Shown: positions 1 to 38,500 of the stretch, piece after piece
How positions within the stretch are numbered: the stretch's first letter is position 1
Layout of the letters: the number at the start of each line of letters is the position of its first letter
IMG/VR virus record: IMGVR_UViG_3300013132_000034
Location: 1-64,000 of that record
Source of the DNA: a virus
DNA: 64,000 bases
Direction: 5' to 3' (one strand)
Notes under the pieces: generated by a model
The model's input: the letters and a program-made list of their open reading frames with translations, nothing else
The model's database searches: none
What the model was told of the DNA's origin: nothing
Program-made: the position numbers and the translations under genes

Positions 1-309
1 AGAGTAAGTGTAGGTGTATTGGTATTTGTTGGAGTTATTGTAGCGGTAGGTGTTTGTGTAGGGGTATCAGTAAGAGTAAGTGTAGGTGTATTGGTATTTG
101 TTGGAGTTATTGTAGCGGTAGGTGTTTGTGTAGATGTTTTGGTAATAGTAGGTGTATTGGTAATAGTAGTATTTGTTGGAGTTACTGTTGCAGTGAGTGT
201 ATTAGACGGTGTTTGTGTAGATGTTTTGGTAATAGTAGGTGTATTGGTAATAGTAGGTGTATTTGTTGGAGTTACTGTTGGAGTGAGTGTATTAGACGGT
301 GTTTGTGTA
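1..309. repeat. Coding tandem repeats (72-bp and 87/90-bp periods) encoding the Thr/Pro tract
   Basis: 1-60 is repeated exactly at 73-132; 121-207 is repeated with a 3-nt insertion and one substitution at 208-297; all periods are multiples of 3. Confidence 0.9.
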
Positions 310-1064
310 TTGGTAGGAGTCGGTGTTTTAGTACCAAACGTTTCAGTAGGTGTATTTGTGAATGATGGTGATGGTGTAAAAATAGGGGTAGCAATAGGCG
401 GGGGAAGCGAGGCAACCGAGACAAAGTCAGTGTTAATATAAAAAATATTAGAAACATTATTGTTTTTAAATTCTTTAAATAACCACCCTTTTATAATAAA
501 TGTGGTATCACCAGTTACTTCATATTTTTTTCTTGCGTCTAATTCTGTAGGGTAATCTACTTTTATATTACCATCCCACAAAACTTCCGATCTTATTTCT
601 TGTGGTATTGAGAGCCCAGCTTCATCAGGTATCTTCCAACTTAATATCATATAAGGGTCGTTATATGGTAAAAAATTTGAAACAATTTGTTCAAAATCGC
701 TAATATATTTTGCTATAATTGACATCTTAATTTTTATATTAACTGGTACAGGTGTCTTAAGATATGAAGAAGTTACATCATTATTTTTTTTGTTATAAAA
801 ACCAGCTATCTTATTAAAAACTCTTGTATTATCTCGCGAAATGTCTTCTATAGATATAGCAACGGCAGGCAGAGTAAGATTTTGAGATTGATTAGCTATA
901 TCATGTAAAACTCTTTGTTTGTTGGGGCTGTAGATATACCTTACTTGTAGCTCACTTTGCGCTTTTCTATTTGAATCAAATTTTTTTATGGTTACATTAT
1001 CAAATGCTGATACAAATTGAGTTACTAAGTTTTTAATTTCAAAACTAAAAGCTTTAGCTTTCAT
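1..1064 (-). CDS. gp15: Second gp15-like tail sheath stabilizer/completion paralogue with a long Thr/Pro-rich C-terminal extension (runs off the window start; absent from the ORF track)
   Basis: Hand translation from ATG 1064: [66 protein letters not shown]...[13 protein letters not shown]...IKGWLFKE, co-linear with 1069..1794, then [22 protein letters not shown]...[13 protein letters not shown] with no stop down to base 1. Confidence 0.85.
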
Positions 1065-1068
1065 TAAT

Positions 1069-1794
1069 TTACTCTGCAACAAATGAGCTTATAGAATCAA
1101 TAAAGCTTTGAATAGAATTTATGCTATCAGTTAAATTAAAATTATTATTAATTTCAAATATATTTTTTACATTATTATTTGTTAAATCTTTAAATAACCA
1201 TCCCTTTATAGTAAATGATGTGTCGCCTAAGACTCTATATTTGTCATTGTAGGAAATATCAGTTGGGTAGGTAAGACTTATATCTCCACTCCAAAGTACC
1301 TCAGATCTTATTTCCTGAGGAATGGCTAATTTAGCTGCATCAGGCACTCTCCAACTAATTACTATGTAAGGATCATTATAAGGTATGAAATTAGAAAGTA
1401 TTTGATCCATATCACTTTGAAATTTTGTAATAATTGACATATTAACTCCAATGTTTACTGGAACGGGGGTTCTTAAATATGATGTTAATGAGCTGCTTTC
1501 ACTTTCTTCTTTTGATTTGCCAGTATAAAAACCTGCAATCTTATTAAACACACGGTCATTGTCTCTAGATATACTCGTAATTGATACAGCAACAACAGGT
1601 ATGGTTATATTTTGTGATTGATTTGCAATATCATACAAAACTCTTTGTTTTGGGCTAAAAACATAACGAACCTGAACTTCTTCTTGAGCCTGTCTTTCCG
1701 AATTAAAACGCTTTATTATTACATTATCAAAAGCAGCAACAAACTGAGTCATTAAATCTTTGACTTCAAAGCTAAAAGCCCTTTCTTTCACCAA
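1069..1794 (-). CDS. gp15: Tail sheath stabilizer and completion protein, T4 gp15-like
   Basis: FDNVIIKR...[12 protein letters not shown]...[53 protein letters not shown] motifs; next to gp4 and gp13. Confidence 0.85.
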
Positions 1795-1795
1795 A

Positions 1796-3334: not shown

Positions 3335-5122
3335 TTATGCTGCGGGAACTGCGGAAGCCCCAGCTGCACCTGCAGCTTCACCACCGCCGGCAGGTGCTGT
3401 CTCTGCACCGGCTGGTGGTTCGCCACCGGCTACAGTAGCTGTACCTGGACCAAAGGCGGGCGGGGCGGCACCTACTCCGCCACCGCCGCCTTCACCTTCC
3501 GGAGTTGCAGGTTGTGCACCTCCAGCCAATGCTTTTTGCCAAGCTGGGCCAGCACCTTCAATTTGTGCAAGTTCCCATGCAAATTCTTTATCTTTTCTGA
3601 GAAATTCTCTATTAGCCATGATTTCCTTCTCTGTCCAGCCCAAATACCGCTTTTGTGCATATGTCTTAGAAACACTATCATTTGCGGAAAAATCATTAAA
3701 GGTTTTAACTTTAAGTTCTAGCTTTTGTTGCTCTCTTAGTTCGTAGAAATTAGAAGGAGGATTGAAAGCAAGATCAATTATATTTTCCTTAAGGTTATGT
3801 TTTTCCCACAAACCCTTTAATTTTAAATGTGTGATAAAACCATTCTTGAGACCTGCAGCAAATCTTTGTTGTAATCTAACAATAAATTTTGCAAACTTTA
3901 ATTCTTCTCTTAATATGTTTTCGCCACCTTGATACTGATCTTCAGGATTCAATCTAGTAGTCGGTACTTTTAATGCTTTGTATAGTTTTTTAACAAAATA
4001 CATTAAGTCAGTCAATTCACCTAAATTCTGACCACCCGGGAGCGATGTTACTGAAGTTCCATCACTCCCCGCTCTCTTGGCAAACCAAAAACTATCCAAC
4101 ATAGATTGCGGATTAAATTTTTGAACTGCTGCATTTTGATCAATATCAAAGGTACGTTTTGACCAATAATTATTCATTAATTTTCTAATATAAGCTTCTG
4201 CTTTCGGAGGTGACATATTACCAACATCCACATTAAAGATCAAACGCTCTGGAGCTCTTACTAAACGATAAATTACAATTGAATCTTCAATTAAAGAAAG
4301 TTGACGGTAAGCCCGGCGTGCATTTTCAATAAATGGTAATCTTAATGTTTTGTTTTCATTCCATATGCCTGAATTAATATATGTTACCTGATTTTTGTCC
4401 ATCGGTATCATTTTGAATTCTTTTATCTTGAGAGGATTTGTTGGATCCATAATAGGCTTTCTCAAAAGATAGCCTTTCACAATCATATTTTGAACATTAG
4501 AAAAAATAGGATCAATGAGTTCGCAAGGCATTGTAACAATACCAAGAATACCTTCTTCAGGATACGATTTGTGAATAATGTGTTCGAAGTAAAGTTCAGC
4601 TTCAACTAGCATTCTCCTAAAATATTCCCACCCGTTAAGATCTAAATTAAAATAACCGACATATCTTTCAAATTCTTTAATAAGCGTTTCTTTTATGGTC
4701 TCTTCAATTTCTTCTGGTCTATTAAAGTTTAATTTTACTATATCACCTTTATCGTCCTTGTTGACACATTCATCACATATTTCATCAAGTGCATCTGCTA
4801 CTTCAGCAAACGCAGCCATAATTCTATAATCCATCATTCTCTTAGGTTTATCTGTTTGTACGTTTGCATACATGAACTGATAAAACTGAGACTCTCTCAT
4901 TACGCTTGCAACAGCGTTATCTCCATAATTTAGGGAAGATGAGATGCTCTGTCTCTGCAATGCTTCTTGACGGGAAGATCCCTGGTCATGAAAAACTTTA
5001 AATTTTGGATTTAATTGTTCAAATCTATCAAGAATGGAATAAGATGAGTAAGGTAGCTTATTACTCATAAACTTGTAAAGTTGCCTACCAAATCCGCCAG
5101 AATTTTCTTGATCGTTAGCCAT
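3335..5122 (-). CDS. gp20: Portal vertex protein, T4 gp20-like
   Basis: EVADALDEICDE, IEDSIVIYRLVRAPERLIFNVDVGNMSPPKAEAY, SLPGGQNLGELTDLMYFVKKLYKALKVP, ILREELKFAKFIVRLQ. Confidence 0.97.
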   Translation of the reverse strand: MANDQENSGGFGRQLYKFMSNKLPYSSYSILDRFEQLNPKFKVFHDQGSSRQEALQRQSISSSLNYGDNAVASVMRESQFYQFMYANVQTDKPKRMMDYRIMAAFAEVADALDEICDECVNKDDKGDIVKLNFNRPEEIEETIKETLIKEFERYVGYFNLDLNGWEYFRRMLVEAELYFEHIIHKSYPEEGILGIVTMPCELIDPIFSNVQNMIVKGYLLRKPIMDPTNPLKIKEFKMIPMDKNQVTYINSGIWNENKTLRLPFIENARRAYRQLSLIEDSIVIYRLVRAPERLIFNVDVGNMSPPKAEAYIRKLMNNYWSKRTFDIDQNAAVQKFNPQSMLDSFWFAKRAGSDGTSVTSLPGGQNLGELTDLMYFVKKLYKALKVPTTRLNPEDQYQGGENILREELKFAKFIVRLQQRFAAGLKNGFITHLKLKGLWEKHNLKENIIDLAFNPPSNFYELREQQKLELKVKTFNDFSANDSVSKTYAQKRYLGWTEKEIMANREFLRKDKEFAWELAQIEGAGPAWQKALAGGAQPATPEGEGGGGGVGAAPPAFGPGTATVAGGEPPAGAETAPAGGGEAAGAAGASAVPAA

Positions 5123-6290: not shown

Positions 6291-6728
6291 TTATTCTGCA
6301 TTCTTATAAAATGACAATCTAAAGTTTGAATCAAGCGAGGAAGGTGTATTATCTATAATTTTTATAAAATTATCTGTAGGTGTTGAGGAAGGAAGTTCCC
6401 AAACTTTATTACTCCATTCAATTACACCATCTTTTAACGGCAATTTATTTAATAATATGGTACTAGTAGATGTTATTGTAGGTGTAGGCAGTAAAGATTG
6501 AATTACTGTTGAAGTAATAGTAGTAGTAGGTGTAATTTTTATAAAATTTGTACACGATTGTGTTATAGCGGGAGTTAAAGAAAAAGTATAACTTGGGGTG
6601 ATAGTTGGTGTTGCAGAAGGTGTGGATGTATTAATAGGTATTTGCGTGACTAATGGTGTTGGGGTGGGTGTAACAAATGGTGTTTTTGTTAATTCTATTT
6701 CAAAACTAACTTTTTTTTTAATAAAAAA
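6291..6728 (-). CDS. ATG-less 145-codon Thr/Pro-rich frame; probable -1 frameshift extension of the membrane protein 6695..7537
   Basis: KKVSFEIELTKTPFVTPTPTPLVTQIPINTSTPSATPTITPS...PSSLDSNFRLSFYKNAE*; overlaps the upstream gene only across TTTTTTA TTAAAAAAAAAG. Confidence 0.7.
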   Translation of the reverse strand, partial: FFIKKKVSFEIELTKTPFVTPTPTPLVTQIPINTSTPSATPTITPSYTFSLTPAITQSCTNFIKITPTTTITSTVIQSLLPTPTITSTSTILLNKLPLKDGVIEWSNKVWELPSSTPTDNFIKIIDNTPSSLDSNFRLSFYKNAE

Positions 6729-7537
6729 TTAAATACGATTAACAAGATTACAGCTAATGGATCAAATACAAAAACCAAACACAATATAAAATATTTAACA
6801 GCAGTATCTAAATCTAAGTTAAAAGCATTTGCTATAAACTTGAATGTACTAATATCTGACTCTGAAGATTCTTTTTGCTTAAGTTCTAAAATTTCATGAT
6901 TTATAGTGTCAAGCTGGGTTAAAAGAGCCTCATTTTCTTTGTTTATATTATCTATCTGTAAATTAGCGTCTGTGACTTCTTTAGAAGCAGCTTCAATCAT
7001 AGAAGTTTTTGCTTTTAATGCTGAAGCATCGGTTACTGACTGAGTCTGATCGCCTCCAAACAAACCGCCTTTTTTAGAAGTAGTTATAGTGGTATTTTGT
7101 TTTGTAATAGTATTGAGTCTTTCTTCTTGTGAAGCTCTTACAAATGTAAGGGTTTTAATTCTTTCTTTATTATATTCAAATTTTTGTATCAAGGCATTTT
7201 TCTTTTCCTCAACAAATTGTATTTTTGATGTGTATAATTCTGATTTAAATTTACTCTTATTATATGCATCGGTTAAAAAACCAAAAATACCTAAGCTTGT
7301 TATAAGCATAAGAACAGTTATTGCCACATATAGATAAATTCTTATTAGTTTGTTGAGTTCTGAAAAAAATCTATATAAACAACTTGTTGCTACTAGTTTT
7401 CCTATTTCTAAAGCACTAGCCATTAGTACAACTGCCCAGAAACTACCTGAAAACAATAAGGATATACCTTTTATAGAGAAAAATGCCGCAATACCGGCAA
7501 TTAAAAATGATGTTGTACCAACAATTATCTTAAACAC
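6695..7537 (-). CDS. Membrane protein: three N-terminal TM helices, coiled coil, C-terminal TM helix (FVFDPLAV motif)
   Basis: Hydrophobic segments, ALEIGKLVA and ITSLGIFGFL motifs, heptad-rich middle; TAAATA just upstream of the GTG start. Confidence 0.8.
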   Translation of the reverse strand: MFKIIVGTTSFLIAGIAAFFSIKGISLLFSGSFWAVVLMASALEIGKLVATSCLYRFFSELNKLIRIYLYVAITVLMLITSLGIFGFLTDAYNKSKFKSELYTSKIQFVEEKKNALIQKFEYNKERIKTLTFVRASQEERLNTITKQNTTITTSKKGGLFGGDQTQSVTDASALKAKTSMIEAASKEVTDANLQIDNINKENEALLTQLDTINHEILELKQKESSESDISTFKFIANAFNLDLDTAVKYFILCLVFVFDPLAVILLIVFNFLLKKKLVLK

Positions 7538-8884: not shown

Positions 8885-9538
8885 TTATAGAGGTATTATT
8901 CTTATTGCTACAAATGCTTCTGCATAATCTTCTTTAATTTCCCTACCTAAAATTTTAGCATTATCTATTATATTTTGTACTGATCTTGGGTGGTTGCTAT
9001 CTCTTATTTCTTGGGTGTAACACTGTAACGCATTTGCTTTAATTTTAATATGGCGTTCTTTTAAAGGTACAAAATAATTAGGCACGAAAGGTTGTATATT
9101 TTTTAGTATACCTTGATCTGTAGATGAGATTGTTTGATATAGAAAGATATTATCAACTCTATGTTTGCTCCAAATACGAGCTGCAGAGTTTAAAGCTTCA
9201 AACAATTTTCTATGATCTTGATGCAAATCGCCGTAAAAAGTAGAATATATTGTGTCCGGTTTTATTTCATAAATTAACTTTTCTAATTTATCAATTAAAT
9301 TATTATTAATATTGTGTAATTCTTGTTCATTTAAATTTAAAAACCTTAAACTATGTACACCGAGAATTTTAGAACTTTTAACTGCATCTCTTAATTGTAT
9401 TTTAGATCTTTCATCATACGAATTTCTTATTAATGCAACTGTTACTATATCACTACTTTCAATATGCTTGGCTATAGTAGCGCCGCACCCTAAAACTTCA
9501 TCATCCCCGTGAGGAGCCAGTACTAGAATTCTTCTCAT
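8885..9538 (-). CDS. PIG-L/LmbE family N-acetyl-sugar deacetylase
   Basis: LVLAPHGDDEVLGCGATI, DLHQDH, K..ALQCYTQE, YAEAF. Confidence 0.92.
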   Translation of the reverse strand: MRRILVLAPHGDDEVLGCGATIAKHIESSDIVTVALIRNSYDERSKIQLRDAVKSSKILGVHSLRFLNLNEQELHNINNNLIDKLEKLIYEIKPDTIYSTFYGDLHQDHRKLFEALNSAARIWSKHRVDNIFLYQTISSTDQGILKNIQPFVPNYFVPLKERHIKIKANALQCYTQEIRDSNHPRSVQNIIDNAKILGREIKEDYAEAFVAIRIIPL

Positions 9539-10286
9539 ATAATTTTAAAAATATGTCTCTCCTATTGTAGTCATTTTTAGCATAGTTAACTTGCAATATA
9601 TGTAATTTATCTAAAAATTCGGATTTACAATATATATCATTATATAAAGAATAATGAACGGGGTGTAATGAGAGCCCGTCTTTTGTTATATCCATATTAA
9701 GACTTTCAGAATATTGAGTATTTAAATCTAATTTTTTAAATTTTTTAGAAGCTAATAATTCTCCCATCAACACATCTTCACCTTTATAGCTGCCCGGGCA
9801 ATTTATAAAACTTTCTTCCGTTTGAGTAAGAATTTTTTTAACAGCTTTTTTTGAAATCATATAAAATCCACCCTCTGCATATTTTGATTTAGCAGGGCGT
9901 TTTGCTATTCTAAAATTTGATTTTACTTTGTAAAAATGTACTGTTTCAGAATTAATAATTTTATTAAATTTACCAATATAGTCGAATTTATAAAAATTTG
10001 CGTTTAATTTAGTATAATCAAAAAAAGTATCGTCATCTAATTTGATAACATGTGTATATTTTATATCTTGAATAGCTTTAAGAGCTAAAAACGTCTTAAG
10101 GGGCAATTGTTCATAGCATTCTTTAAAATTTCTAAGCTTTAGAAGGGGCACAGCGGGTATGAAATCTGACGTAACATAAAAATAAGAAATTTTTTGGTTT
10201 TGCAAAATTTTAGCCCAAGTATTTTCTATGGCTTGAATTCTTTTTAAATTTTTTTTACATGTTGTTATTAGAACTACAGGTTTCAT
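9501..10286 (-). CDS. GT31-like (galactosyltransferase/Fringe-type) glycosyltransferase
   Basis: RIQAIENTW, YEQLPLKT, HVIKLDDDTF, YAEGGFYMIS, EDVLMG, LSLHPV. Confidence 0.8.
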   Translation of the reverse strand: MKPVVLITTCKKNLKRIQAIENTWAKILQNQKISYFYVTSDFIPAVPLLKLRNFKECYEQLPLKTFLALKAIQDIKYTHVIKLDDDTFFDYTKLNANFYKFDYIGKFNKIINSETVHFYKVKSNFRIAKRPAKSKYAEGGFYMISKKAVKKILTQTEESFINCPGSYKGEDVLMGELLASKKFKKLDLNTQYSESLNMDITKDGLSLHPVHYSLYNDIYCKSEFLDKLHILQVNYAKNDYNRRDIFLKLYEKNSSTGSSRG

Positions 10287-11371
10287 GAAAAATAATCAGT
10301 ATAATTACTTTGACGTCTTACATCTAACGTTAAGCAATGATGTCCTCCTCCAAATAATCTACTATATCTAATTTGATTGGGTATAACTTCTATATTATAA
10401 TCTTTTAACTTATTTTTTAAAACACTGTAATATTCTGGCAAACAAACAATACAATTTTGAGATATAGAAAGCACGTTACAAAATATTTTTTCTGATGCTA
10501 GAGGTGTATAGCTAGTAGGTGTTAATTCAGGTGAAATTTTTATAAAATCCCATTGCTGTAAAGGCTCTGGTAGCTGCTCAATAATATCTAAAGTAATTAG
10601 AGCTAACCCTGGTTTAAGAGGTAAAAAAACAGAATCTATATGATGATCAGTAATTTGTACTGGCCATACTTCATATTCTTTACCTAAATGTTGTTGCAAC
10701 CAAATAGCTCCAAGCTTTTCATGTTCTGTTGGAGCATTAAATAATATTTTATTACCTAGCCTCATGCAATTTGCAGAATCAAACATTATTTCAACGCCAC
10801 AATCTAATTCATGAGCAAATTTATTTTTTAAATTTTCATAATATTCTAAAGCTCCCTCACTTTTATATACTCTTGAAAAATCATATGAACTATCTGTTAC
10901 AAGTGGTCTTGGTGCAGCTGACCATTTTGCACCATTTTTAAAATATTCTAAAAATAAATGTTTTAAATAATCATTTTCGAATTGTCTCCATCTAGCAGAA
11001 ATAGGTGTTTCAATTATCTCGTTACCTACTATCATAGTAAGATCTCTTACATTTAATGCGGGGTAGTTTGTGCTCTTCCAACATAGTGTCTGTGTTTTTA
11101 CTACTTTATTAGGCACTTTAGGTCTTTTTACAATAATTCCCATATTTTTTAGTAAATTTACAAAATTTTCTAAATCTTCATTATGTTCACAAATTATTTT
11201 TTTATCATGTGCCCATCTATCAGAAAAATAGCTATTTCTAACCCCAAATATATTATCATGAAAAAACAATTTAAAAGTTAAATCATCTGTTGGCAAAGAT
11301 TCAGGAAAACCATTACCGACAATAACTTCTTCTAAATTATCCCACTCATTATGACTATTTACAGTATTCAT
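10283..11371 (-). CDS. Amidinotransferase (glycine / inosamine-phosphate StrB1-type)
   Basis: VNSHNEWDNLEEVIVG, NVRDL, FDSAN, HIDS..LPLKPGL, GGGHHCLTLDVRR; Asp-His-Cys triad present. Confidence 0.92.
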   Translation of the reverse strand: MNTVNSHNEWDNLEEVIVGNGFPESLPTDDLTFKLFFHDNIFGVRNSYFSDRWAHDKKIICEHNEDLENFVNLLKNMGIIVKRPKVPNKVVKTQTLCWKSTNYPALNVRDLTMIVGNEIIETPISARWRQFENDYLKHLFLEYFKNGAKWSAAPRPLVTDSSYDFSRVYKSEGALEYYENLKNKFAHELDCGVEIMFDSANCMRLGNKILFNAPTEHEKLGAIWLQQHLGKEYEVWPVQITDHHIDSVFLPLKPGLALITLDIIEQLPEPLQQWDFIKISPELTPTSYTPLASEKIFCNVLSISQNCIVCLPEYYSVLKNKLKDYNIEVIPNQIRYSRLFGGGHHCLTLDVRRQSNYTDYFS

Positions 11372-12096
11372 ATTTTAAAAAAAATATTATAACAATCATT
11401 TTGTTTATTTAAATCCCAGTAAACAGTATATTTCCTAGTATGTTTATAATTTCCGAAAAATTGTGGCGCTATATTACATTTTTTCTTGGTTTTGTTTATA
11501 TCGTCAACTATGTAAAAAGGTAGATTATGCATTATTCCTTTTATAGAGTCTTGTGGGTTTTTATATATTATAATAATCTTAGAAGGATTATGTGTATATT
11601 CTAAATATTTTACCAAACTTACATCTTCCTTTATATTGAAAAAGTCTAGGACTTTTTTAATATTTCTATCGTTTATATAATAGTATCTTCTAATTTGAGT
11701 TGCATCGTTATTAAATTCAACTGATACTGCTTTTTGGTAATTTATCAAGCTAGTTTTTTCGAGTATATCGTGTTCTTTAAAATTAAAAAATTTATTTAGT
11801 TTTATATGAAAATTATATACTATATTATTCATATTGTCAATTTTAATAGAAAAACAATTATTGTTACTTCTATCTAAATCTATAAATTTATAAAATTTTT
11901 CATATAATTCATAATTATGCGGGAAGGGATACTCTTCTTTTGATAATTTATGTAGAAATTGAAAATATGCTTTATTTGAAATAATGGCTTTGTTTTCGTA
12001 TGTCTTTCCTAAAAGTCCTAACCAATTATTAGTGTAGTGGTGTTTTTTATATAATGTATTATATAGCTCGTAAAGACTCTTAAAATCAGTAACCAT
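11368..12096 (-). CDS. Hypothetical protein in the glycan-modification block
   Basis: ORF coupled to both neighbours; no motif recognised. Confidence 0.6.
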   Translation of the reverse strand: MVTDFKSLYELYNTLYKKHHYTNNWLGLLGKTYENKAIISNKAYFQFLHKLSKEEYPFPHNYELYEKFYKFIDLDRSNNNCFSIKIDNMNNIVYNFHIKLNKFFNFKEHDILEKTSLINYQKAVSVEFNNDATQIRRYYYINDRNIKKVLDFFNIKEDVSLVKYLEYTHNPSKIIIIYKNPQDSIKGIMHNLPFYIVDDINKTKKKCNIAPQFFGNYKHTRKYTVYWDLNKQNDCYNIFFKI

Positions 12097-13711: not shown

Positions 13712-13712
13712 A

Positions 13713-14943: not shown

Positions 14944-14951
14944 TTAATTAT

Positions 14952-27170: not shown

Positions 27171-27755
27171 TTAAATTTTATCAAACATAGTGCTTTGATT
27201 AAGATGGGGTAGAGGCTCGGAAGGTATATCTACATTTAAAAACTTACAAAATGGATCCCAACCATCAGAAAACTTATATATTAATAAAGGTTTATTATCT
27301 GTTTTTGCAAAATTAATAATTTTTTCTTTATGAATGAGTACTTCTTGACAAAAACTTTCTTGGTTTAAATCTGTTTTTTTAAAAACTTCAAGTAAATTAA
27401 AATAATCAAAAGTTTGAGCAGGTTTTGATGTATTTTTATTAAACCAGTCTTCTAAAAGTTTAAAATTTCTTGACAGCCCAACCTTTAAGAAAGAATTATA
27501 TATAGCTAGTGGGTCTTTATCTATATAAATTAAGTTAAAATCAAATCCTTTTATCATCTCTAAAAAAATTAAGGAATAGAAAGGTGTATCTGAATAAAAT
27601 TCGTATCTCTTGCTTTGAAGATATGCAAACGCGTGCTTGCCACCAACATGCAGTGCATTAAGACCAACAATTTTTGCCATTTTTGTTAAAGACAAGGTAC
27701 CTGTTCTGGGTAAAGAACATACTATAGTAAGAGGCTTATCTTTTTCTTGGCTCAA
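27171..27755 (-). CDS. Sulfotransferase-family (Sulfotransfer_4-like) P-loop protein
   Basis: LPRTGTLSL PAPS-binding-type loop, DTPFY, DGWDPFCKFLNVDIPSEPLPHLN. Confidence 0.8.
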   Translation of the reverse strand: MSQEKDKPLTIVCSLPRTGTLSLTKMAKIVGLNALHVGGKHAFAYLQSKRYEFYSDTPFYSLIFLEMIKGFDFNLIYIDKDPLAIYNSFLKVGLSRNFKLLEDWFNKNTSKPAQTFDYFNLLEVFKKTDLNQESFCQEVLIHKEKIINFAKTDNKPLLIYKFSDGWDPFCKFLNVDIPSEPLPHLNQSTMFDKI

Positions 27756-29425
27756 TTCTCTCTTCTTTCTTTAGATTCGTAATGTGCAAAACGGTAATGA
27801 TTAATAGGTGACAGCAACAACAATGCCCCTCTCAAATTGCCCGATTTAGACATCTGAAAAAATTGAGACATCCATGTTTGTTCGTATGGGTGCGCCCATT
27901 TAGTATCTAAAAACATTTTTTTATTACCAGTTCTTGAAACTATTTGAGGCCAATTACAATAATAAATTTCACCATCAATGTATGCCAACCCATCACATGA
28001 ATTTATATTGTTAAATTGTGTTTTTGGAGCATTAGGGTCTAAACCTTGTACTGGTAATACTGTTTTTTCTGGAAAAAATTTCTCTCTTACTGTTTGCGGA
28101 ACATTATACCACGACCACTGGGTCTTATTATCACCAAAAAACTCTGTAAATGAAAATTTAAGAAAATCATACTCTTCTTTGTCCATTATTTTAATAATTT
28201 TATAAAACAAATTATCAGTAGTACGCGGAATTCCATTCTTACAAACTCTTTCCGGTCCATTGTAAAGATTCATATCATCTTCAAAAAACATATAGTATTT
28301 TCCGTTAGTAGTTTCAAAATGATCGGCAATAAATTGCCGTCCACCGCATATTCCTATATTGTTTTGTTTGATATGTTCAAAATTATACTTTGCACATATA
28401 CGTTTATAATCATCTGTGGTTGTTAAATTAGTACTATTATCGATTAGTACATTGGTAGTATCTCTGAAAAACCCGGGTTGTATTAAATAGCTTTCAATAA
28501 GCTTGGAAAATTGCTCAGGCGAATTAAACCCTATAACATATGAATAAGTCCCAGTGTGATTGCTAAATATTTTTACATCTTTTTTAGTTACATCTAAATT
28601 TTTTACATCTTCAAAAAACTTTACTACTAAGCCATTATCTTCAATCATGTGTTTGTGAAACATTTGAGGATATATGTAAGAGAGTATTGTAAAAATACTT
28701 TCTTCCGTGCCCATTAACCCTTCATGTAATGAATTTGATAGTAATGCATAATATGCACCGTTAATATCGCTCATATCTTTGGTGCTACCGCCGAAAAAAC
28801 CTCCTCGACATACATATTCTACATTTTTTGTATGTGCATATTCATTTATTTTCGGTCTGCTAAAGCCATGTATTTCGCCACCACCAGTATATGGAAAGGT
28901 TATAAACAAAAACTTATCTGTTATTTCAGGAATTTTTTCTATAACTTTGTCCTTGCTGAAATAACCCGGGTGAACTGTGTTGGTTAAACCACCATCAATC
29001 CAATACATGTATTCTGTATTAAAGGGGTTGCGTATTTTTTCATCATGCAGCATAAACATTTTTGACATAACCATAGGGTTATATAACTCCATGGTTGCTT
29101 GGGTGCTCTCACGAAGCCAACCAGCTTGATTCAACCAATTTTCGTTTTTTCTTATATTTTGTACTTGATCATAGAATGGAAAGTGTTCTTTAAATGAATC
29201 TGTTTCTTTTATTCTTATTACTGTGTTATGTGGTTGACGCAAACTATTGACAAGATCTTTATACTTGTCTTCTATATAAATTACTAAATTATAATCTTTT
29301 AGAGATGTAAGCAATTCCGTGAATTTAACAATATAATGTGAAAAAGGTCTTTTGAATCCTTCACCAGCATTATTTCTACCCAGGTCCCATATGCCTGTGA
29401 CAAGGGTAATATTGTTTTTATTCAT
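27752..29425 (-). CDS. HtrL/WlaTC-family glycosyltransferase fused to a second GT-A (GT2-like) domain
   Basis: ITLVTGIWDLGR, PFNTEYMYWIDGG, CRGGFFGG, GTEESIFT; second half NIGICGGRQ...YYMFFEDDM. Confidence 0.8.
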   Translation of the reverse strand: MNKNNITLVTGIWDLGRNNAGEGFKRPFSHYIVKFTELLTSLKDYNLVIYIEDKYKDLVNSLRQPHNTVIRIKETDSFKEHFPFYDQVQNIRKNENWLNQAGWLRESTQATMELYNPMVMSKMFMLHDEKIRNPFNTEYMYWIDGGLTNTVHPGYFSKDKVIEKIPEITDKFLFITFPYTGGGEIHGFSRPKINEYAHTKNVEYVCRGGFFGGSTKDMSDINGAYYALLSNSLHEGLMGTEESIFTILSYIYPQMFHKHMIEDNGLVVKFFEDVKNLDVTKKDVKIFSNHTGTYSYVIGFNSPEQFSKLIESYLIQPGFFRDTTNVLIDNSTNLTTTDDYKRICAKYNFEHIKQNNIGICGGRQFIADHFETTNGKYYMFFEDDMNLYNGPERVCKNGIPRTTDNLFYKIIKIMDKEEYDFLKFSFTEFFGDNKTQWSWYNVPQTVREKFFPEKTVLPVQGLDPNAPKTQFNNINSCDGLAYIDGEIYYCNWPQIVSRTGNKKMFLDTKWAHPYEQTWMSQFFQMSKSGNLRGALLLLSPINHYRFAHYESKERREN

Positions 29426-29459: not shown

Positions 29460-30347
29460 CTATACATACTTGCTAAAAATTTTATAAAAAGAATTATTAT
29501 TTCTTTCTAAAATGGGCATAAAAGGTGCACCGCTGTCTTCATGATACCAACACCCAAAGCTTTCTAATTTCATAGTATCTTGTTCTGTATTAGATATAAA
29601 TTCAGATAACAACCCCTCTTCAGACACCATTAAATTATTATCAAGATAACCTTCGAGATACTCTGTATATGTTTTATGTAAGTTAGTTATAAAATCTCTA
29701 GTACCTCCAAACAGACCACCAACTACATGATACTTTTGAAATCTCTCGGAATTACCATAAAGCAATTTACCGGAAGGAAAATGGTCCACTAAGAAAGGCT
29801 TTTCACCTACAACAAAAAAACTATTTTGTTTTTCATCAAAACTTAACATTTTTGTGAACACTTCAGGGTTGAATAAGTTAAATTCATAATAACGAGCTAG
29901 TGAATCATACTGCTCACCAACAAATTTTTGTGGAAATAAACCATTATATGATAAACCACAATCAATCCAGAAAATATTTTCATAGTTAGTGGTTTCTTTT
30001 ATTTGATTAAGCCATGTAACCTTGCTATGCATAATTTCAAAACAACGATCAGGCCATACTTTATTATGACCACCTAATATTTCTTGAAATCTTTTATGAT
30101 ATTTGCATTCTTTTAAATCGTAGGGTACCATGTTAAGATTAGAAAAAAATCTATGTTTAAATTCGCCTTGCAAACCATCTTTACTAGCTTCATCAACATA
30201 AACATAGATGTTAGAATTAATTTTGGAAATACTTCTCAAAGAATATACATACTGGTGCTTGCGACTTGCGCGTCCTCCTAGCGAGGTATTGTATAAATTA
30301 GTATAACAAGATGTTATAAAGCATGTATTATCTTTTAAGTTGATCAT
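29460..30347 (-). CDS. HtrL/WlaTC-family glycosyltransferase
   Basis: IMHSK, IFWIDCGL, VVGGLFGG, SEEGLL; similar to the N-half of 27752..29425. Confidence 0.75.
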   Translation of the reverse strand: MINLKDNTCFITSCYTNLYNTSLGGRASRKHQYVYSLRSISKINSNIYVYVDEASKDGLQGEFKHRFFSNLNMVPYDLKECKYHKRFQEILGGHNKVWPDRCFEIMHSKVTWLNQIKETTNYENIFWIDCGLSYNGLFPQKFVGEQYDSLARYYEFNLFNPEVFTKMLSFDEKQNSFFVVGEKPFLVDHFPSGKLLYGNSERFQKYHVVGGLFGGTRDFITNLHKTYTEYLEGYLDNNLMVSEEGLLSEFISNTEQDTMKLESFGCWYHEDSGAPFMPILERNNNSFYKIFSKYV

Positions 30348-30949
30348 GACTTCTTATATTTACATGTCCATACTACATCATTAAAATTAATCTTATCATA
30401 ATCAACCAAATTATGCTCTAAACAAGTAGGTTCGATATCTTTTTCAGTTAATTCGCACCAACCCCATACTGTTCTCTTATACTCCTCTGTGAATAACTCT
30501 AAACTCCTGCAAAAATCATGTGCCATAATAAAATCCCCTGGCTTAAGAAGTGGTGCTGCCTTCTTAAATTCAAAAAGCTTGTTCCCGCCGTCACATAAAA
30601 CTAACGTTTTAAGCGGACAAAGAATGTCATCTTTAATTTCTTGATCTATATCTTTCATATACCCGGGAGCACCTTTTTCACCAAATGTATCACGCTCAAC
30701 AACTTTTACACCTAATTCAGTTAAAACCCCTTTGAGAAAAATTGGCGGTAAATTATACGTTGACATCTTTACAGGGTTACTATGTTCACGTATAAATCTA
30801 GTAAGACACCCTGTACCAGTACCAATCTCAACTATATTCTCAAACTTCTCTTCATCCAAAAGTTTTTGAAAATATATATCATATTTTTCATGTTGCTGTA
30901 ACATTACTTCTTTATATACTGTAAAACCTTTTATGGCATTATCACTCAT
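30344..30949 (-). CDS. Class I SAM-dependent methyltransferase (CmcI/Methyltransf_24-like)
   Basis: IVEIGTGTG, LVLCDGG, LLKPGDFIMAHD. Confidence 0.8.
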   Translation of the reverse strand: MSDNAIKGFTVYKEVMLQQHEKYDIYFQKLLDEEKFENIVEIGTGTGCLTRFIREHSNPVKMSTYNLPPIFLKGVLTELGVKVVERDTFGEKGAPGYMKDIDQEIKDDILCPLKTLVLCDGGNKLFEFKKAAPLLKPGDFIMAHDFCRSLELFTEEYKRTVWGWCELTEKDIEPTCLEHNLVDYDKINFNDVVWTCKYKKS

Positions 30950-30957: not shown

Positions 30958-32289
30958 TTAGCTAACTACATGGTGTCCAATAGTACCAGTTATGGGATCT
31001 TGCCAACCTTTACTGATACTATGAGGCCAGACTATCCAGCTTGCTGGCAATTCCTCTGCATTAAACTCTCTCCAGACCTTGCAATAACCATCAGGATCAT
31101 TTCGCATACGTGCAATTTCGTCTTTATCAGCATCCTTACGAAAAACATCTTTGCCAGCTTTATCCTTAAATGCTACACACCAAAAATCATAATCATCAAG
31201 AGGAATCTGACTATACTGTACATCAATGCAATGTTTAAATATTTTTAAGAATGAAGCTTCAAACTCTTTCTCATTTTTAAATGAGTATGGATTTGGTGCG
31301 AGATTATTATCTAATGTATATCTTTGGACTGCACGTTTTTTAAAACAAAGGCCTGAATATTTCTCATATTCGCGCAAAGTTCTTTCAGTACCAAAATCAT
31401 ATATACCAAAATCAATATCTTTCTTCTCACCATCCATTTCAAATAACTTGCGATTTCTTAAATGACAAGCATCATTTCTTTTAACCCATTCTTTATCGTC
31501 ATCCCATTGCTTAGTCCGTCCTTTTCTTGTATATTCATGCCATATTACCACTCGATGTGGGTGAAATAAATCGTAACCCTTGGTAAATGCTCTTACTGCA
31601 ATACTAATTTCTTCGCCGTGAAAATAATAATTAGGATCATGAGGAACTTCTTTACAAAACTCGCCTAATGTAAAACAAAAATGCGCAGAATAAAATCTAG
31701 CAGGTATTGGTTCATTGCGTTCTCTCCAATCATCAATTGTTGCAGGCAAGAAAAATACCGCGCCTTCAGGTATAAATCTATCAAAATTCATTTTCCATGG
31801 CTCTTGTACACGTGCTTGAGGATCTTTATCCGGGTCAAAGCTAGGAATATAACCAGTTAGCAAAGGTTTTTTGTGCCCTTTTTTCTGTAACTGTAATATC
31901 ATATTAACTAATATTTCATCCCAATCTTTAACAAATCTGTGATGGCTATCCAGCTGTAAAGTGTATTTTTCATCTTTATAATATTGTTGTACTAAGTTAC
32001 GTGCCCAACAAACACCCTTGCTTTTTGTATATGGTACATCAATTATTCTAAATTTACTATCATTAACAAATTCTTCTAAAGATTCTTTTTCATCATGTTG
32101 CCAGCAAATACCAAATCTCAATCTATTAGGATATTTTGCATTTGCTAAGCAATCTCGCAAAGTAGGGACAAGTTGTGGGTCTCTATACGCAGCAATTTGA
32201 ATATAAATTGTATCTTCTGCAGATGATACGGGTATAGCAGTTACATTTTTAATTTGTTTTTTTGTTTTTTTAGATGGTCTTGGCGGCAC
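30958..32289 (-). CDS. GT60-like polypeptide N-acetylglucosaminyltransferase (Gnt1/Skp1-GlcNAc transferase family) with an extra C-terminal domain
   Basis: IQIAAYRDPQLVPTL..C...AKYP.RL..GIC.Q, SKGVCWAR, LQLDSHHRFVKDWD, LLTGY, VPHDP..YFHGEEISIAVRAFTKGYDLFHP...WHEYTR. Confidence 0.85.
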   Translation of the reverse strand: MPPRPSKKTKKQIKNVTAIPVSSAEDTIYIQIAAYRDPQLVPTLRDCLANAKYPNRLRFGICWQHDEKESLEEFVNDSKFRIIDVPYTKSKGVCWARNLVQQYYKDEKYTLQLDSHHRFVKDWDEILVNMILQLQKKGHKKPLLTGYIPSFDPDKDPQARVQEPWKMNFDRFIPEGAVFFLPATIDDWRERNEPIPARFYSAHFCFTLGEFCKEVPHDPNYYFHGEEISIAVRAFTKGYDLFHPHRVVIWHEYTRKGRTKQWDDDKEWVKRNDACHLRNRKLFEMDGEKKDIDFGIYDFGTERTLREYEKYSGLCFKKRAVQRYTLDNNLAPNPYSFKNEKEFEASFLKIFKHCIDVQYSQIPLDDYDFWCVAFKDKAGKDVFRKDADKDEIARMRNDPDGYCKVWREFNAEELPASWIVWPHSISKGWQDPITGTIGHHVVS

Positions 32290-33842: not shown

Positions 33843-35285
33843 TTAATTTATATTTCTTCCTATACCACCAATAATACCGTCTGCAAGCGGTTGACCGTAT
33901 ATCGGTTGAGTTGGTGAAGGTGTAATAGTTGGAGTTGGTGTTGGTTGAACTGTAGATGGAGGTGTTGGTGAAATTTGCGGTGTAGGTTGTGGTGTACTTG
34001 TTGGATTTGGTGTATTTGTTGGTGAAGGTGTTACTGTTTGTGATGGTGTATTTGCTGGTGTATCGGTAGGTGTTATTGTTGGTGTTTCGGTAGGTGATAT
34101 GGTTTGAGTTGGTGTAAAGGATGGTGTCACTGCAGGTGTTGCAGTTTGTGTAGGTGTGCGAGTAGGTGTAGATTGAGGTGTTGATGTCTGTGTTACAGAT
34201 TTTGTTGGTGTAACCGTTCTTGTAATTGAGCAAGTTGGAGTAAATGTAGGTGTTGGTGTTGTTGTAGGAGTTTTTGTAGGGGTGGGCGAGGCAATTGTAC
34301 CTGCAACATTAAAATTCTTGATACCAAAGTCGGTATTGTTCAGGGATGAAAAGTTTAATCCTAATTTTAAGCTATCTAAAGCAATACCTGTGCCTAGAGT
34401 TGGGCTGTTATAATTTAAAATAGTTACATAATCATTATAATCACCTGGTTTAATTTTTACTTCTATTGTTTTACCTAAATCTGTTAATCTTATCTTTATT
34501 CTGTTACCTGAATTTGCAGTAAGCGATGATGCTAGATTATTGGTGAGTAAAATAGGCAAAGAATAGAATGAGCTGCTTAAATTATCAGATTGTATTAAAT
34601 GTTTATAGCTATTTAAATAGGAATCTTTAATAGAAACAGAATTTGGCACTACAGTTGAAGTTATATTGTTAAGCGTTTGTCCAAATCTACCAGTAAAATC
34701 AAATCCCACCCCAAGCAATCCACCAGCCTTGCCAGCATAAACAGACCCTACATTTTTTCGTTCTAAGTTAGGGTACCCCCAACCTGCAGGTTTATTTGGG
34801 CCATCTTTCCAATCTACAGCCCATACGGGAAAATCACTATTGCTAGTACTATAATAGTACAACAAACTGTTATTAAGCCAAATTCTCCACCCTGTAGGGT
34901 ATATACCATAAGTAGTATCGTAAAATCCTATTCTTAGACCCCCATCATTTCTATAAATTGGTCTATCTGTATAATTTGAATAAGCTGAAATATAGATAGG
35001 TGTGAATGTATTATTGGCTTCACTTAGTAAGAGATGTGAATTATTAAATATATCACCTGTTAATGGTAGGTACCCTAGCCCCCAACCAGGCGAACCACCG
35101 CTTAGAGAAGAATTACCTTCATAAAAAAATAAACAAAATCCTTCGGAGCCTGTTTCATTTAAATTTTTATCTAACAAATTACTATATACATTAGTAACAT
35201 AATCAAATGAAATGACAATATCACCTTCAGGCGACAATTCATAATTAGGAAAAAAAGTATATGACCGGGTTTCGTTAAAATTCAT
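33843..35285 (-). CDS. L-type (legume/ConA-like) lectin-domain protein with a long Thr/Pro-rich C-terminal stalk
   Basis: ISFDY...GSEGFCLFF...GGSPGWGLGY...LLGVGFDFTG...PNSVSI; about 130 aa TPTPT-type tract at about 33903-34290. Confidence 0.7.
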   Translation of the reverse strand: MNFNETRSYTFFPNYELSPEGDIVISFDYVTNVYSNLLDKNLNETGSEGFCLFFYEGNSSLSGGSPGWGLGYLPLTGDIFNNSHLLLSEANNTFTPIYISAYSNYTDRPIYRNDGGLRIGFYDTTYGIYPTGWRIWLNNSLLYYYSTSNSDFPVWAVDWKDGPNKPAGWGYPNLERKNVGSVYAGKAGGLLGVGFDFTGRFGQTLNNITSTVVPNSVSIKDSYLNSYKHLIQSDNLSSSFYSLPILLTNNLASSLTANSGNRIKIRLTDLGKTIEVKIKPGDYNDYVTILNYNSPTLGTGIALDSLKLGLNFSSLNNTDFGIKNFNVAGTIASPTPTKTPTTTPTPTFTPTCSITRTVTPTKSVTQTSTPQSTPTRTPTQTATPAVTPSFTPTQTISPTETPTITPTDTPANTPSQTVTPSPTNTPNPTSTPQPTPQISPTPPSTVQPTPTPTITPSPTQPIYGQPLADGIIGGIGRNIN

Positions 35286-35286
35286 T

Positions 35287-35559
35287 TTATGGCAAGGTTA
35301 GAGTTGGTGTCGGTGTAACAGTACATGTAATGGTTGGTGTTGGTGATTTTGTTGGGTCAGGTGATGTAGAGGGTGTTGGAGTCGGTTGTGGTAATGGGTA
35401 GCTTGATAAGAGAAAACAACTATCACATGAATTTGAGCCAACAATTTCCGCTTTTCTTACATTTATTAACCCACTATTACCAGTAGAAATATAACAATCA
35501 CCATAATAATTTACAGTGCTTGATAAAGAATCTGCATATATATAAAGTGAATTTGCCAT
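35287..35559 (-). CDS. Small protein with a Cys-containing N-module and Thr/Pro-rich tail
   Basis: GDCY...SCDSC then PQPTPTPSTSPDPTKSPTPTITCTVTPTPT; AATAAATA 5 nt upstream. Confidence 0.65.
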   Translation of the reverse strand: MANSLYIYADSLSSTVNYYGDCYISTGNSGLINVRKAEIVGSNSCDSCFLLSSYPLPQPTPTPSTSPDPTKSPTPTITCTVTPTPTLTLP

Positions 35560-35591
35560 CTAGTTATTTATTGTAGCTGTAAAGATTGAAA

Positions 35592-38500
35592 CTATACAAC
35601 TCTTTGTACATATGGATATGGCGGGTTACCCTTAATAGTAATATTAGTTCCTACAGGACCACCTGAACTTGAAACTGGAGATTTAGCAGTTATTGTGTTG
35701 TAATAACCATATGGAGCGCATGCGAATTCGTTAATTGGTTGTGTTGATGCATATACAAAACCAATATCACTTGTCCAGTTATTTGTACTTGATAATATTA
35801 AGCCCTTGACATAAGAAGAATCACTATTAAAGTCAGAAACAAATACTAGAGTAAAGTTTGGATTAGCAGTATTTGCATAAAATACAGTAAATGCAGATGG
35901 ACTTATAAGTCTAGTATATGCAGCTGTTAATGTATAATTACCATTTGCAGCAGTTAAACCAGCACCACTTACATTTATTACTAATGCATCTGGACATAAA
36001 TTATTCCATGGTAGCGGGGTTGGTGTTGGCACAGGGTTAGTTACTGTTGGTGTAGGTGTCAATGTAGGTTGCGGTGAAGGTGTGGGGGTTACAACAGGGC
36101 TAAATATTAAACCAGCATCACAATTAACGAATTCACCAACTATCAAGCTAGGTGATGCAGATGTACCAAACCATAAAATTGATTCATCTTTGTTTTGATA
36201 TGATGAGAATTGACCTGTAATAGTATTTCCATAAAAAGCTGTAAGCGGCAAAGTAACCGAAAAATTTAAATCTTTTATAAAAAATTCGGGTTTGTAAGCA
36301 ATATGTTTTATAAAATCTACATTAGCATTATTAATATAAAATTCATGGTATATATTAACAAATACATTATTACTATTTTTCGCGAAATAGTTGAGAACGA
36401 ATGTATTCGTGTCTTCGTTATAACTTAAAACAGGCTTGTCAATACGTTCTATGTTTGTATCATCATCTAAATGAACATAAAAACCTGATAAATTTTCGTA
36501 ACTAACATTAAAAGTAGGATAAATTTTTAAAAATTGAGGATTTGTAATGTTTATTTCATAAATTTCAGGATACAATACTTTTTTATTTGAAGCACTAAGT
36601 TCTGGTATAAGAACCATTTTTGCAATATAAGCTATATTTTGTTTTTCGTTAAAAAATAATGTACTAAACTTTTCAAGTTTTTTATTATTGTTATATATTT
36701 TAACAAAATTCTTTGAGCTATCGAAGGGTTCAATTATATTCTCTATATAATTATAAGAAAGTTTATCGAAAATAAAATAATCTTTTGTTTCAATAAATAA
36801 AACGTTATAAATTAATTCAAAATTAACAACTCCTTGTTTTATATTATCAACAACAAAACTTGGATATTTTTCATAAACGGTTGAAAGAGCAATATCAAGC
36901 GTATTTACATTTGTAGTATTTGCATTCTTAACATACAAATTGCCAATTTCTTCATATCTGCTTTCATAAATTGATTTGTTTTTATCAAGATTTGTTGATA
37001 AAGCTTGTACTGACGTTTGATATTCTGTAGGTACCGCTAAATTAACAAATTCTGCATTGTCATCTCTATAATTTAATGTACCGGGTCTTACAGTAGTAGC
37101 AGAATTAGATATGGCGCAAGGTGTTTCACCAGCTAAATTAAATCTAAACCCTTCTAAATCTACCAATACATTAGCAGATAGAGGGAATGTATACGAAAAT
37201 GTAGCTCTATCGACGTTATTAGGTCGAGTATAATCGTCGTTTAAGCTTCCTTCTAACAATTCACTGTAGTAAACAGGTACTGAAGAGTTAAAATCTGACC
37301 TATCTGAAGAAACATCTAATCGTAAATTACTTAAAGGGTCTACAAAAGTAACACAGTCTAATAAGACGCAATAAGTTACTTTAAAAATATCACAGTATGT
37401 GTCGATGCAAGAGCCATCTTGTTGAACCTCGCAAAAATGACCTTTTCCATAAGCTATAACAAGTAATGGTGTTGGTAGTGGTGTAAACCTAACAGGAGCA
37501 TTGTAGGGGAAATTAATAACATAATTAGCATAAGGGTCTACTCCTGGTAATAATCTATTAATTCCTCTTGCTGATAAACTTGTATAGTAACCGCTGCCTG
37601 GGGGTATTTGTGAAACAGTTCTAGATGTTACACCAGATATATCTTTGTCAGGATTGGGTATAGTTAAATCAATATTAAACCCGCTATCAAAATCATAAAA
37701 TTTATAACCGTCTAACAGTAAACAATTTTTTATTCTTAAATTGGTAAAATTATTTATATTTAAACCTTTTCTTCCTGTGCCATACAAACCACCGCGCCCG
37801 CCAGTGAAATTAAAAAAATCTAATTCTTGTTCTGAAATAAATTGTCCTCTATTTTTACCACCACGGCCAATCCCTACAGGATTTATTTCTTTATAAAGAC
37901 CAAAATTATTTCCGTATATATCATTTTTGTATTTTGTGAGAGTCTTGTTTAAAACTAATAAATTAGATTGTCTTTGTTCTAAAGGATACAAATTATCTTG
38001 TACGGGATAAACGTCGGAATTAGCCCATACTGATTTTGATGAACCTTCAAAAAATTCTGTACTGTCTATATCACGTGACATGCCTATAGGTTGATAACCT
38101 ATAGTTTCACTTCTGCTATGGTAAGCATAAAAGTTTTTATATAATGGATTACTTACTATATTACCAAAAAGATATTGAGCAGTTCTATTAAAATGCATCC
38201 ATGAAACATCTTCTTCATAAATTAATGGTGATTCAAAATCTGTTTCAGATAAGTTAGTAATATTACCATATTGAGAAGGGTCAGGAAATACGTAAACTTT
38301 ATTTGTTTTTAATTTATTATTATCTATATCTACTGTATGTTTAAAATTATTAAAATTTAATACGCCTAATTTGTCAGGTAGAAAGAATCCCCCTATTTGT
38401 CTTATATTTTTTAAATTACTTTCATTTTCAACTGCAGCTGCAGAAGGAAATCTTTTATTTAAAAAATTTGTAGATTTATCTTCGGCTTCAAAAAGTAACC

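Follow-up and report, generated by a model that had tools for sequence, protein, structure and literature searches.

A GT60-type glycosyltransferase genetically linked with Thr/Pro-rich tracts in an uncultured T4-like lake phage: a candidate phage-encoded system for mucin-type O-glycosylation

The first 64 kb of the 97-kb IMG/VR record IMGVR_UViG_3300013132_000034 (completeness estimate ~46%), in the following termed the window, stem from an uncultured T4-like myovirus of lake-water metagenomes and encode an enzyme of glycosyltransferase (GT) family 60 as well as five protein tracts dominated by threonine and proline. We consider it probable that this phage possesses its own cytoplasmic mucin-type O-glycosylation system, by which N-acetylhexosamine (HexNAc) would be O-linked to threonine in Thr/Pro tracts that belong to appendage proteins of the phage itself, and the resulting glycans would then be extended and decorated. 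Enzyme identity and fold, genetic linkages, tract statistics and co-occurrence were observed and form the basis of this proposal.

With regard to the enzyme, the match to PF11397 reaches 249.8 bits (cut-off 21) and covers profile positions 92-350 plus an N-terminal stretch. The DxH motif (D114-S115-H116) is invariant across 34 aligned phage homologues, and the same holds true for many residues of an additional C-terminal region. A GT-A catalytic domain (residues ~22-350) is followed by a conserved beta-rich domain (~320-443). Upon structural comparison of the AlphaFold (AF2) model (pLDDT 88.9), catalytic domains of polypeptide N-acetylgalactosaminyltransferases (ppGalNAc-Ts) occupied the top 29 entries (VIA Z 19.5-22.4, root-mean-square deviation ~3.6 A over ~280 residues), while the following families did not exceed Z 18; the C-terminal domain was scarcely covered in these searches. 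The sequence-only reading, which had labelled the protein as GT60-like, was thus borne out by profile search, by the DxH motif and by fold. The N-terminus is basic and not hydrophobic, so that the protein, for which no signal peptide was found, should act in the cytoplasm. Judged by these sequence features, the protein is a true member of GT60 and soluble.

The five tracts claimed by the sequence-only reading were all recovered at the expected places, on the minus strand and in frame within real open reading frames (ORFs; Table 1). They contain 27-44% threonine and 14-36% proline vs. 7.2 and 4.1%, respectively, in the protein background of the window. The 97-kb record contains a total of 25 tracts across seven proteins, as opposed to none in 20 triplet-shuffled genomes, i.e., the putative acceptor domains are Thr/Ser/Pro-rich far beyond chance, as is characteristic for mucin-like sequences. 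Outside of the window, at 93931-97092 on the plus strand and therefore opposite to the window tracts, a very large Thr/Pro-repeat coding region with at least 15 tracts is located.

Table 1. Features of the window and the principal evidence for their assignment (aa, amino acids)
Feature	Position	Strand	Evidence and remarks
GT60 polypeptide HexNAc-transferase-like putative initiator	30958..32289	-	PF11397, E 7e-74
557-aa enzyme with a tandem pair of GT-A domains, the N-terminal one of HtrL/YibB type	27752..29425	-	PF09612 (HtrL_YibB), E 9e-15
Sulfotransferase (Sulfotransfer_4)	27171..27755	-	PF17784, E 6e-18; start overlaps stop of 557-aa enzyme by 4 nt
295-aa protein	29460..30347	-	Variable island; homologues in 31/80 loci and XacN1 ORF332 (28% identity, 281 aa)
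201-aa protein	30344..30949	-	Weak SAM (S-adenosylmethionine)-methyltransferase motif; 4-nt overlap with next gene; homologues in 24/80 loci
Thr/Pro tract 1	6-362	-	Tail of gp15 paralogue ORF 3..1082, truncated at contig end
Thr/Pro tract 2	6636-6692, T/P/S-rich on to ~6441	-	-1 frame past ORF 6695..7537
Thr/Pro tract 3	33894-34304	-	ORF 33843..35285
Thr/Pro tract 4	35290-35397	-	ORF 35287..35559
Thr/Pro tract 5	36003-36101	-	ORF 35592..39464
Lectin-like Thr/Pro protein, 480 aa	33843..35285	-	N-domain ~1-330, then 139-aa Thr/Pro tail
90-aa protein	35287..35559	-	Last 36 residues form Thr/Pro tail up to stop codon
1290-aa baseplate-module protein	35592..39464	-	33-aa Thr/Pro linker before ~135-aa C-terminal domain
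gp15 (tail sheath stabiliser, neck) paralogue	3..1082	-	PF16724, E 3e-15; Thr/Pro tail of at least 136 aa; structural
gp15 (neck)	1069..1794		Structural
Multi-pass membrane protein with -1 extension	6291..7537 (ORF 6695..7537)	-	A_AAA_AAG before stop, in A9 run ~6708-6716
Second enzyme island	8885..17728	-	PIG-L, GT31, amidinotransferase-like, three GT8-like, radical SAM/SPASM, GT32-type, unknowns
PIG-L deacetylase	8885..9538	-	Pfam, 2e-19
GT31/Galactosyl_T	9501..10286	-	Pfam, 1e-8
Amidinotransferase-like (lead)	10283..11371	-	Language-model atlas 0.96, inosamine-phosphate amidinotransferase family
GT8-like, under cut-off	12096..12908	-	1e-3
Radical SAM + SPASM	12884..13711	-	Pfam
GT8-like, weaker	13713..14483	-	2e-5
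GT32-type Gly_transf_sug	14952..15689	-	1e-6
GT8	15679..16443	-	Pfam, 3e-17
Fibre-like proteins	18.4-21.1 kb	-	Mtd_N and Peptidase_S74 domains
Portal	3335..5122	-	phrog_213, E 1e-104
gp6-like baseplate wedge, two ORFs	44113..44769 and 42919..43857	-	phrog_219, 1e-21 and 4e-15
gp25-like baseplate wedge	44772..45242	-	PHROGs phrog_261/43, 2e-25

The proteins that carry the tracts differ in kind. In the lectin-like protein the Thr/Pro tail stops 15 residues short of the C-terminus; its designation as a lectin should be taken as a lead only, as matches to L-type lectin clusters (0.83-0.89) stay under the 0.9 level of the tool. Homologues of the 90-aa protein with the same layout occur in three related loci (L003, L004, L006), and the family of the 1290-aa protein (c15) comes after family c14 and gp6/gp25-like genes in 15 loci. 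The tract-bearing gp15 paralogue shares 64% identity with the adjoining gp15, and its tail is made up of 72- and 90-bp DNA repeats that are 87-96% identical to one another. As the closest complete relative (G044) has a single gp15, the Thr/Pro tail on this neck protein is a recent acquisition. In the case of the membrane protein, the -1 frame (6291..6728) comprises 145 Thr/Pro/Ser-rich codons and lacks a start codon near its beginning. An assembly error at the A9 run in a single sample was ruled out, since contigs assembled from three further runs (lake or sediment) are identical and free of indels; together with the 50-100 additional C-terminal residues present in frame in homologues from loci L008 and L064, this shows that the arrangement is real. 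Ribosomes or the polymerase may slip at A_AAA_AAG. PHROGs and Pfam searches gave no match for the large Thr/Pro proteins, a 498-aa protein and families c14, c17 and c20. The c17 protein (26448-27134, minus strand, 228 aa), encoded just past the enzyme island, is devoid of a Thr/Pro tract in the window. Relatives have 40-214 tract residues after this N-domain, in some cases with additional domains behind them, which indicates that tracts are gained and lost on orthologous proteins.

Family GT60 includes, also according to the Pfam description of PF11397, hydroxyproline GlcNAc-transferases such as Dictyostelium Gnt1 (GlcNAc, N-acetylglucosamine), and considering the proline content of the tracts a Skp1-type, Gnt1-like transfer to hydroxyproline in place of threonine has to be weighed. 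We regard it as highly improbable, because the prolyl-4-hydroxylase-type domain PF13640 is absent from the record as well as from nine complete GT60-positive phage genomes, which renders threonine the more likely acceptor, even though a host hydroxylase or another oxygenase family might step in. The protist GT60 enzymes are the counterpart of GT27 and begin mucin-type O-glycans by placing GlcNAc on Thr/Ser-rich domains (PMC8724618), with threonine being the residue modified in Trypanosoma cruzi (PMC3769586). DxH is a signature of GT27 and GT60, the latter being confined to prokaryotes and protists (PMC7185993).

To compare the genomic context, we analyzed 80 of at least 353 related IMG/VR GT60 loci with 10-kb flanks. 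GT60 and the gene for the 557-aa enzyme bracket a set of co-oriented enzyme genes, the content of which varies by lineage. The 557-aa enzyme is encoded beside GT60 in 78 of these loci and is the sole window gene that travels with it. A Thr/Pro ORF is present within 10 kb in 49 loci. After dereplication to 55 loci, Thr/Pro genes made up none of the 331 genes inside the island, 34 of the 206 genes at most two genes away from its edges and 26 of the 531 located farther away. This corresponds to an odds ratio of 3.8 for the edges (Fisher p 1.4e-6, which is not a true probability as the loci are related). In loci L007, L010, L031 and L043, GT60 is immediately preceded by an orthologue of the gene for the lectin-like Thr/Pro protein of the window; the N-domains of the encoded proteins are 30-46% identical to that of the window protein and are followed by 150-390 Thr/Pro residues. 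In that clade, a tract is likewise encoded by the family c17 gene that comes after the double GT, and in L008 and L064 the membrane-protein homologue directly follows the enzyme island.

The window partner of GT60 consists of two Rossmann-like domains, which are separated by a break at residues 279-290 in the AF2 model (pLDDT 89.4). Each half features a conserved acidic motif (D144 and E382-D383-D384, respectively). The top Foldseek matches of the model (E 1e-10 to 3e-6) are LH3, mimivirus R699, LARGE1, K4 chondroitin polymerase (K4CP), ColGalT1 and the Pasteurella heparosan synthase PmHS2, and they span ~630 columns of these two-domain enzymes. The likeness, i.e., the presence of two GT-A domains in the model, is one of fold alone: identity is ~10%, the N-terminal domain of the phage protein is of the HtrL/YibB type, and TM-scores are low (~0.25) because the domain arrangement differs. 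Sequence searches against the PDB with this protein and with GT60, the latter as single sequence and as profile, yielded nothing useful, and no GT60 structure was found by sequence. On the basis of the model, the 557-aa enzyme is a candidate for an elongating or bifunctional transferase.

Co-occurrence was evaluated beyond the immediate neighbourhood. The DNA pattern for TPTPTPT is present in 14 of 18 large GT60-positive IMG/VR records, whereas the reversed-pattern control is found in none of the 18. All three cultured GT60-positive jumbo phages contain TPTPTPT (6-16 matches each), bringing the total to 17 of 21 GT60-positive large phage genomes, as compared to none of seven GT60-negative cyanomyophages. 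The latter served as controls, because most relatives retrieved via portal or clamp loader were short contigs and therefore unsuitable. Conversely, GT60 was detected in nine of 43 viral records chosen by (TP)4T alone and in six of the ten records of at least 90 kb among them.

Among cultured phages, GT60 occurs only in Xanthomonas phages XacN1 and Xoo-sp13 and Stenotrophomonas phages CM1 and RAS14 (48-51% identity). In XacN1, the baseplate wedge genes are followed by a gene for a 3313-aa Thr/Pro protein and a cassette with a homologue of the 295-aa protein, the double GT (ORF330, 43% identity with the 557-aa enzyme over 555 aa) and GT60. At least two bands of XacN1 virions were stained by periodic-acid-Schiff (PAS) reagent, and the authors suggested that phage glycosyltransferases are responsible (PMC5852040). 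A search for papers on GT60 or PF11397 in connection with phages did not reveal, among those covered, any description of the system proposed here.

GT60 relatives are also encoded in 384 GTDB species representatives, among them Saprospiraceae, Gemmatimonadaceae, Verrucomicrobia, Acidobacteriota, Burkholderiales and others. In 40 of 80 bacterial loci examined, the double GT is located beside GT60. In four loci from metagenome-assembled genomes of Vicinamibacterales and Myxococcales, GT60 and an HtrL-type GT share one reading frame (L313:7267-11802, L314:9851-13546, L341:9908-12904 and L347:8-3646), which by sequence indicates natural fusions of both core enzymes. Neighbours of bacterial GT60 (L289, L282, L314, L343, L336, L305, L344, L328) start with a Tat-like signal or with a PqqD-like domain plus a membrane helix, continue with 60-200 Thr/Pro residues and in some cases end with a C-terminal hydrophobic anchor. 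These small proteins are candidate mucin-like glycoproteins. In our view, fusion and neighbourhood across phyla constitute the strongest evidence that the enzyme pair and the tracts belong together. The tie between a polypeptide HexNAc-transferase and its putative acceptors, which had been assumed by the sequence-only reading, is therefore found genetically in both phages and bacteria, i.e., at the island edges, in the upstream orthologue, in the bacterial neighbours and in the co-occurrence across phage genomes.

A different explanation starts from the fact that Thr/Pro tracts are common as inter-domain linkers and could simply share a hypervariable fibre region with the enzyme island. The tracts would then be ordinary unglycosylated linkers or spacers of fibre proteins, the island would act on lipopolysaccharide (LPS), capsule or proteins of the host, e.g., to block superinfection, and the proximity of both would be due to the shared variable region. 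Three of the five window tracts, those of the 90-aa protein, the lectin-like protein and the gp15 paralogue, are terminal tails that join nothing, and a role as carrier fits them better than a role as linker. On the other hand, the tracts of relatives lie between anchor domains and domains of the binding type (RCC1, Laminin_G, P-domain, LRR, fn3 and others), about 31 of the 80 viral loci are without a Thr/Pro gene within 10 kb, and the tracts are dispersed along the genome. HtrL/YibB first became known from an LPS core gene cluster, and a sigma-70-like site precedes GT60, though such sites are no more frequent in the window than in shuffled sequence. Further points weigh against glycosylation of the tracts: the co-occurrence counts are neither phylogenetically independent nor adjusted for genome size or composition, the cultured controls are unlike the carriers in host and base composition, and the PAS stain of XacN1 names neither the proteins nor the enzyme. 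All in all, we nevertheless consider unglycosylated linkers unlikely. GT60 is a polypeptide-modifying family and the window enzyme is soluble, the linkage with Thr/Pro genes persists in unrelated bacterial phyla where no fibre region exists, and TPTPTPT is missing from GT60-negative cyanomyophages even though their fibre regions are hypervariable as well.

Glycosylation of the tracts could also take place mainly on phage proteins that are not part of the virion, such as the multi-pass membrane protein with its frameshift tail or secreted and surface proteins of the infected cell, similar to the bacterial Tat-signal proteins. The bacterial neighbours are indeed small exported or anchored Thr/Pro proteins, and the position of the membrane-protein homologue in L008 and L064 points in the same direction. 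The claim that all five tracts reside on virion proteins stood in part only: the gp15 paralogue and the 1290-aa protein are structural by homology or position, whereas tract 2 belongs to a membrane protein and neither the lectin-like nor the 90-aa protein has a match among structural proteins. A predominantly non-virion role appears improbable to us, however, in view of the tracts on the gp15 paralogue and the baseplate-module protein, the position of the island inside the structural module and the fact that the glycoproteins of XacN1 came from purified virions (PMC5852040).

For mucin-type glycosylation of appendage proteins, we infer acceptor, sugar, sequence of reactions, presence of the small proteins in the virion and benefit to the phage as follows. 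Soluble GT60 would transfer HexNAc onto threonine hydroxyls of the Thr/Pro tracts in the host cytoplasm, prior to assembly or while it proceeds; the precedent of the family would suggest alpha-GlcNAc, with UDP-GlcNAc as donor. The lectin-like protein, which is encoded two genes upstream of GT60 and by its sequence appears to be the likeliest primary acceptor, is probably modified first; the 90-aa protein, the 1290-aa protein and the gp15 paralogue would be additional targets. The 557-aa enzyme, judged by its modelled fold, may add the next sugars or a repeating pair. Variable enzymes, i.e., the methyltransferase-like protein, the 295-aa protein and the sulfotransferase in the window and a carbamoyltransferase and other GTs in relatives, would decorate the chain, and the changing enzyme set would therefore be expected to produce lineage-specific glycans. 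This would give rise to stalks and tails of a mucin-like, bottle-brush type on proteins of the neck and the baseplate periphery. Stiffening, adhesion or shielding, as suggested by the sequence-only reading, would be possible roles.

A more far-reaching version, which by analogy with the double-GT-A polymerases we put forward as speculative and rather doubtful, would see GT60 and the double GT-A enzyme as a prokaryotic/phage 'proteoglycan' module that combines priming at threonine, polymerization of a repeating disaccharide and, in this phage, sulfation. It would create glycosaminoglycan-like brushes on virions and exported mucin-like glycoproteins in many phyla.

Among known systems, mycobacteriophages were reportedly found by Freeman et al. 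in 2023 (cited in PMC12582341) to encode glycosyltransferases that modify their own virion proteins, which resembles the system proposed here. Independently of that citation, the enzymes are said to belong to other GT families and to modify C-termini of capsid and tail-tube proteins. To our knowledge, neither GT60 nor long mucin-like tracts have been reported in that context. The metazoan GT27 ppGalNAc-Ts are the best structural match (Z 22.4, ~280 residues) and, like the phage enzyme, combine a catalytic domain with a C-terminal accessory domain. Identity is ~13%, however, the alignment of the phage protein did not extend from the catalytic domain to the ricin-type lectin domain, and the phage enzyme is soluble, in contrast to GT27 enzymes, which reside in the Golgi as type II membrane proteins. 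The protist GT60 enzymes, i.e., the mucin enzyme of T. cruzi and the mucin-type enzyme and Skp1 Gnt1 of Dictyostelium, share PF11397, DxH and the GT27/GT60-type GT-A domain with the phage protein, and the candidate acceptors of the phage are likewise Thr-rich, Pro-rich and mucin-like. Phage and bacterial enzymes differ in being soluble, in the putative use of phage proteins as acceptors in the phage case and in carrying the additional conserved C-terminal beta-rich domain of ~120 aa; for protist GT60s, the absence of a C-terminal targeting domain has been reported (PMC8724618). The XacN1 cassette (ORF334-ORF330; also Xoo-sp13 and CM1/RAS14) resembles that of the window in GT60, double GT, the homologue of the 295-aa protein and a giant Thr/Pro neighbour past the wedge genes. 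On the other hand, XacN1 is a jumbo phage of a plant pathogen with ~49% GC, and its variable enzymes are a carbamoyltransferase and a GT9. The original report drew no connection between the enzyme family and the Thr/Pro tracts (PMC5852040).

The other enzymes of the window are a heterogeneous set. In operon order, GT60 is followed by the genes for the 201-aa methyltransferase-like protein, the 295-aa protein, the double GT and the sulfotransferase, with two junctions overlapping by 4 nt. The sulfotransferase belongs to the variable decoration set since homologues are present in two of the 80 loci only. For the 201-aa protein, matches to SAM-binding motifs are weak (Methyltransf_23, E 0.063; Erm/KsgA, E 0.004-0.007 over ~30 residues). 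The 295-aa protein is without a match in Pfam and NCBIfam, joins HtrL-type proteins by single-linkage clustering only and aligns once, over 44 aa (E 5e-4), with the counterpart of the 557-aa enzyme in XacN1; it is possibly a distant HtrL-type transferase by these sequence relations. In the second enzyme island, the amidinotransferase-like protein has neither a Pfam nor an NCBIfam match, and the top subfamily matches of the radical SAM/SPASM protein are peptide- or cofactor-maturase types, all of them far under the cut-offs. Pfam thus confirmed the GT31, GT8, GT32, PIG-L deacetylase, radical SAM and sulfotransferase labels given by the sequence-only reading. The amidinotransferase (atlas 0.96), methyltransferase (E 0.004-0.06) and lectin labels remain leads, and of two supposed HtrL-type transferases the 557-aa enzyme was verified while the 295-aa protein is a lead. 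The idea that the whole 36-kb set acts as one system gained no support: only GT60 and the 557-aa enzyme are conserved together in the compared loci, and the island at 8.9-17.7 kb, a putative part of the system at most, falls beyond their 10-kb flanks.

The window has a GC content of ~30% and carries almost all genes between 1 and 45 kb on the minus strand. Near-identical contigs are present in metagenomes from lake water and freshwater sediment. A megablast search of cultured phages with a 40-kb part of the window returned no match and the portal is only ~34% identical to gp20 of cyanophages (cyanomyophages), so there is no close cultured relative. At the C-terminus of the portal (3335-3560, minus strand), ~65 residues outside the portal profile form a low-complexity region rich in Gly, Ala, Pro and Glu. 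A head-tail adaptor gene was also identified among the structural genes. Because of the gp25-like and gp6-like genes at 42919..45242, the Thr/Pro proteins and the enzyme island are placed in the baseplate module; the GT60 island is flanked by these genes and by the Mtd_N/Peptidase_S74 fibre genes. The two gp6-like ORFs cover phrog_219 positions 8-198 (44113..44769) and 280-333 (42919..43857) and are separated by a 255-nt gap, which could reflect a split gene, an insertion or intron, or a frameshift. At 18405-21079 (minus strand), two adjoining fibre-like proteins have the Mtd_N (major tropism determinant N-terminal) domain in common, and the longer one ends with the Peptidase_S74 intramolecular chaperone domain. 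The T4-type late promoter TATAAATA was found at 12 sites vs. 24 expected by chance; such sites lie immediately before 23013..26420 and 21081..21344, and none precedes the Thr/Pro genes or GT60.

Few cases of self-glycosylation of phage particles are known. A family of mucin-type initiators so far characterized in protists only is here found to be widespread, its members occurring in at least 353 stretches of viral DNA and in 384 representatives of bacterial species. If our proposal is correct, strain-variable brushes of glycans would be found on the tail appendages of numerous phages from aquatic habitats and soil, which would matter for how particles adsorb, how stable they are, how they attach to polysaccharide matrices and how grazers or immune systems recognise them. 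As XacN1 and its relatives are cultured, the idea is open to bench tests now. It would provide the first function for prokaryotic GT60 enzymes and make it possible to test how mucin-type glycosylation arose in eukaryotes.

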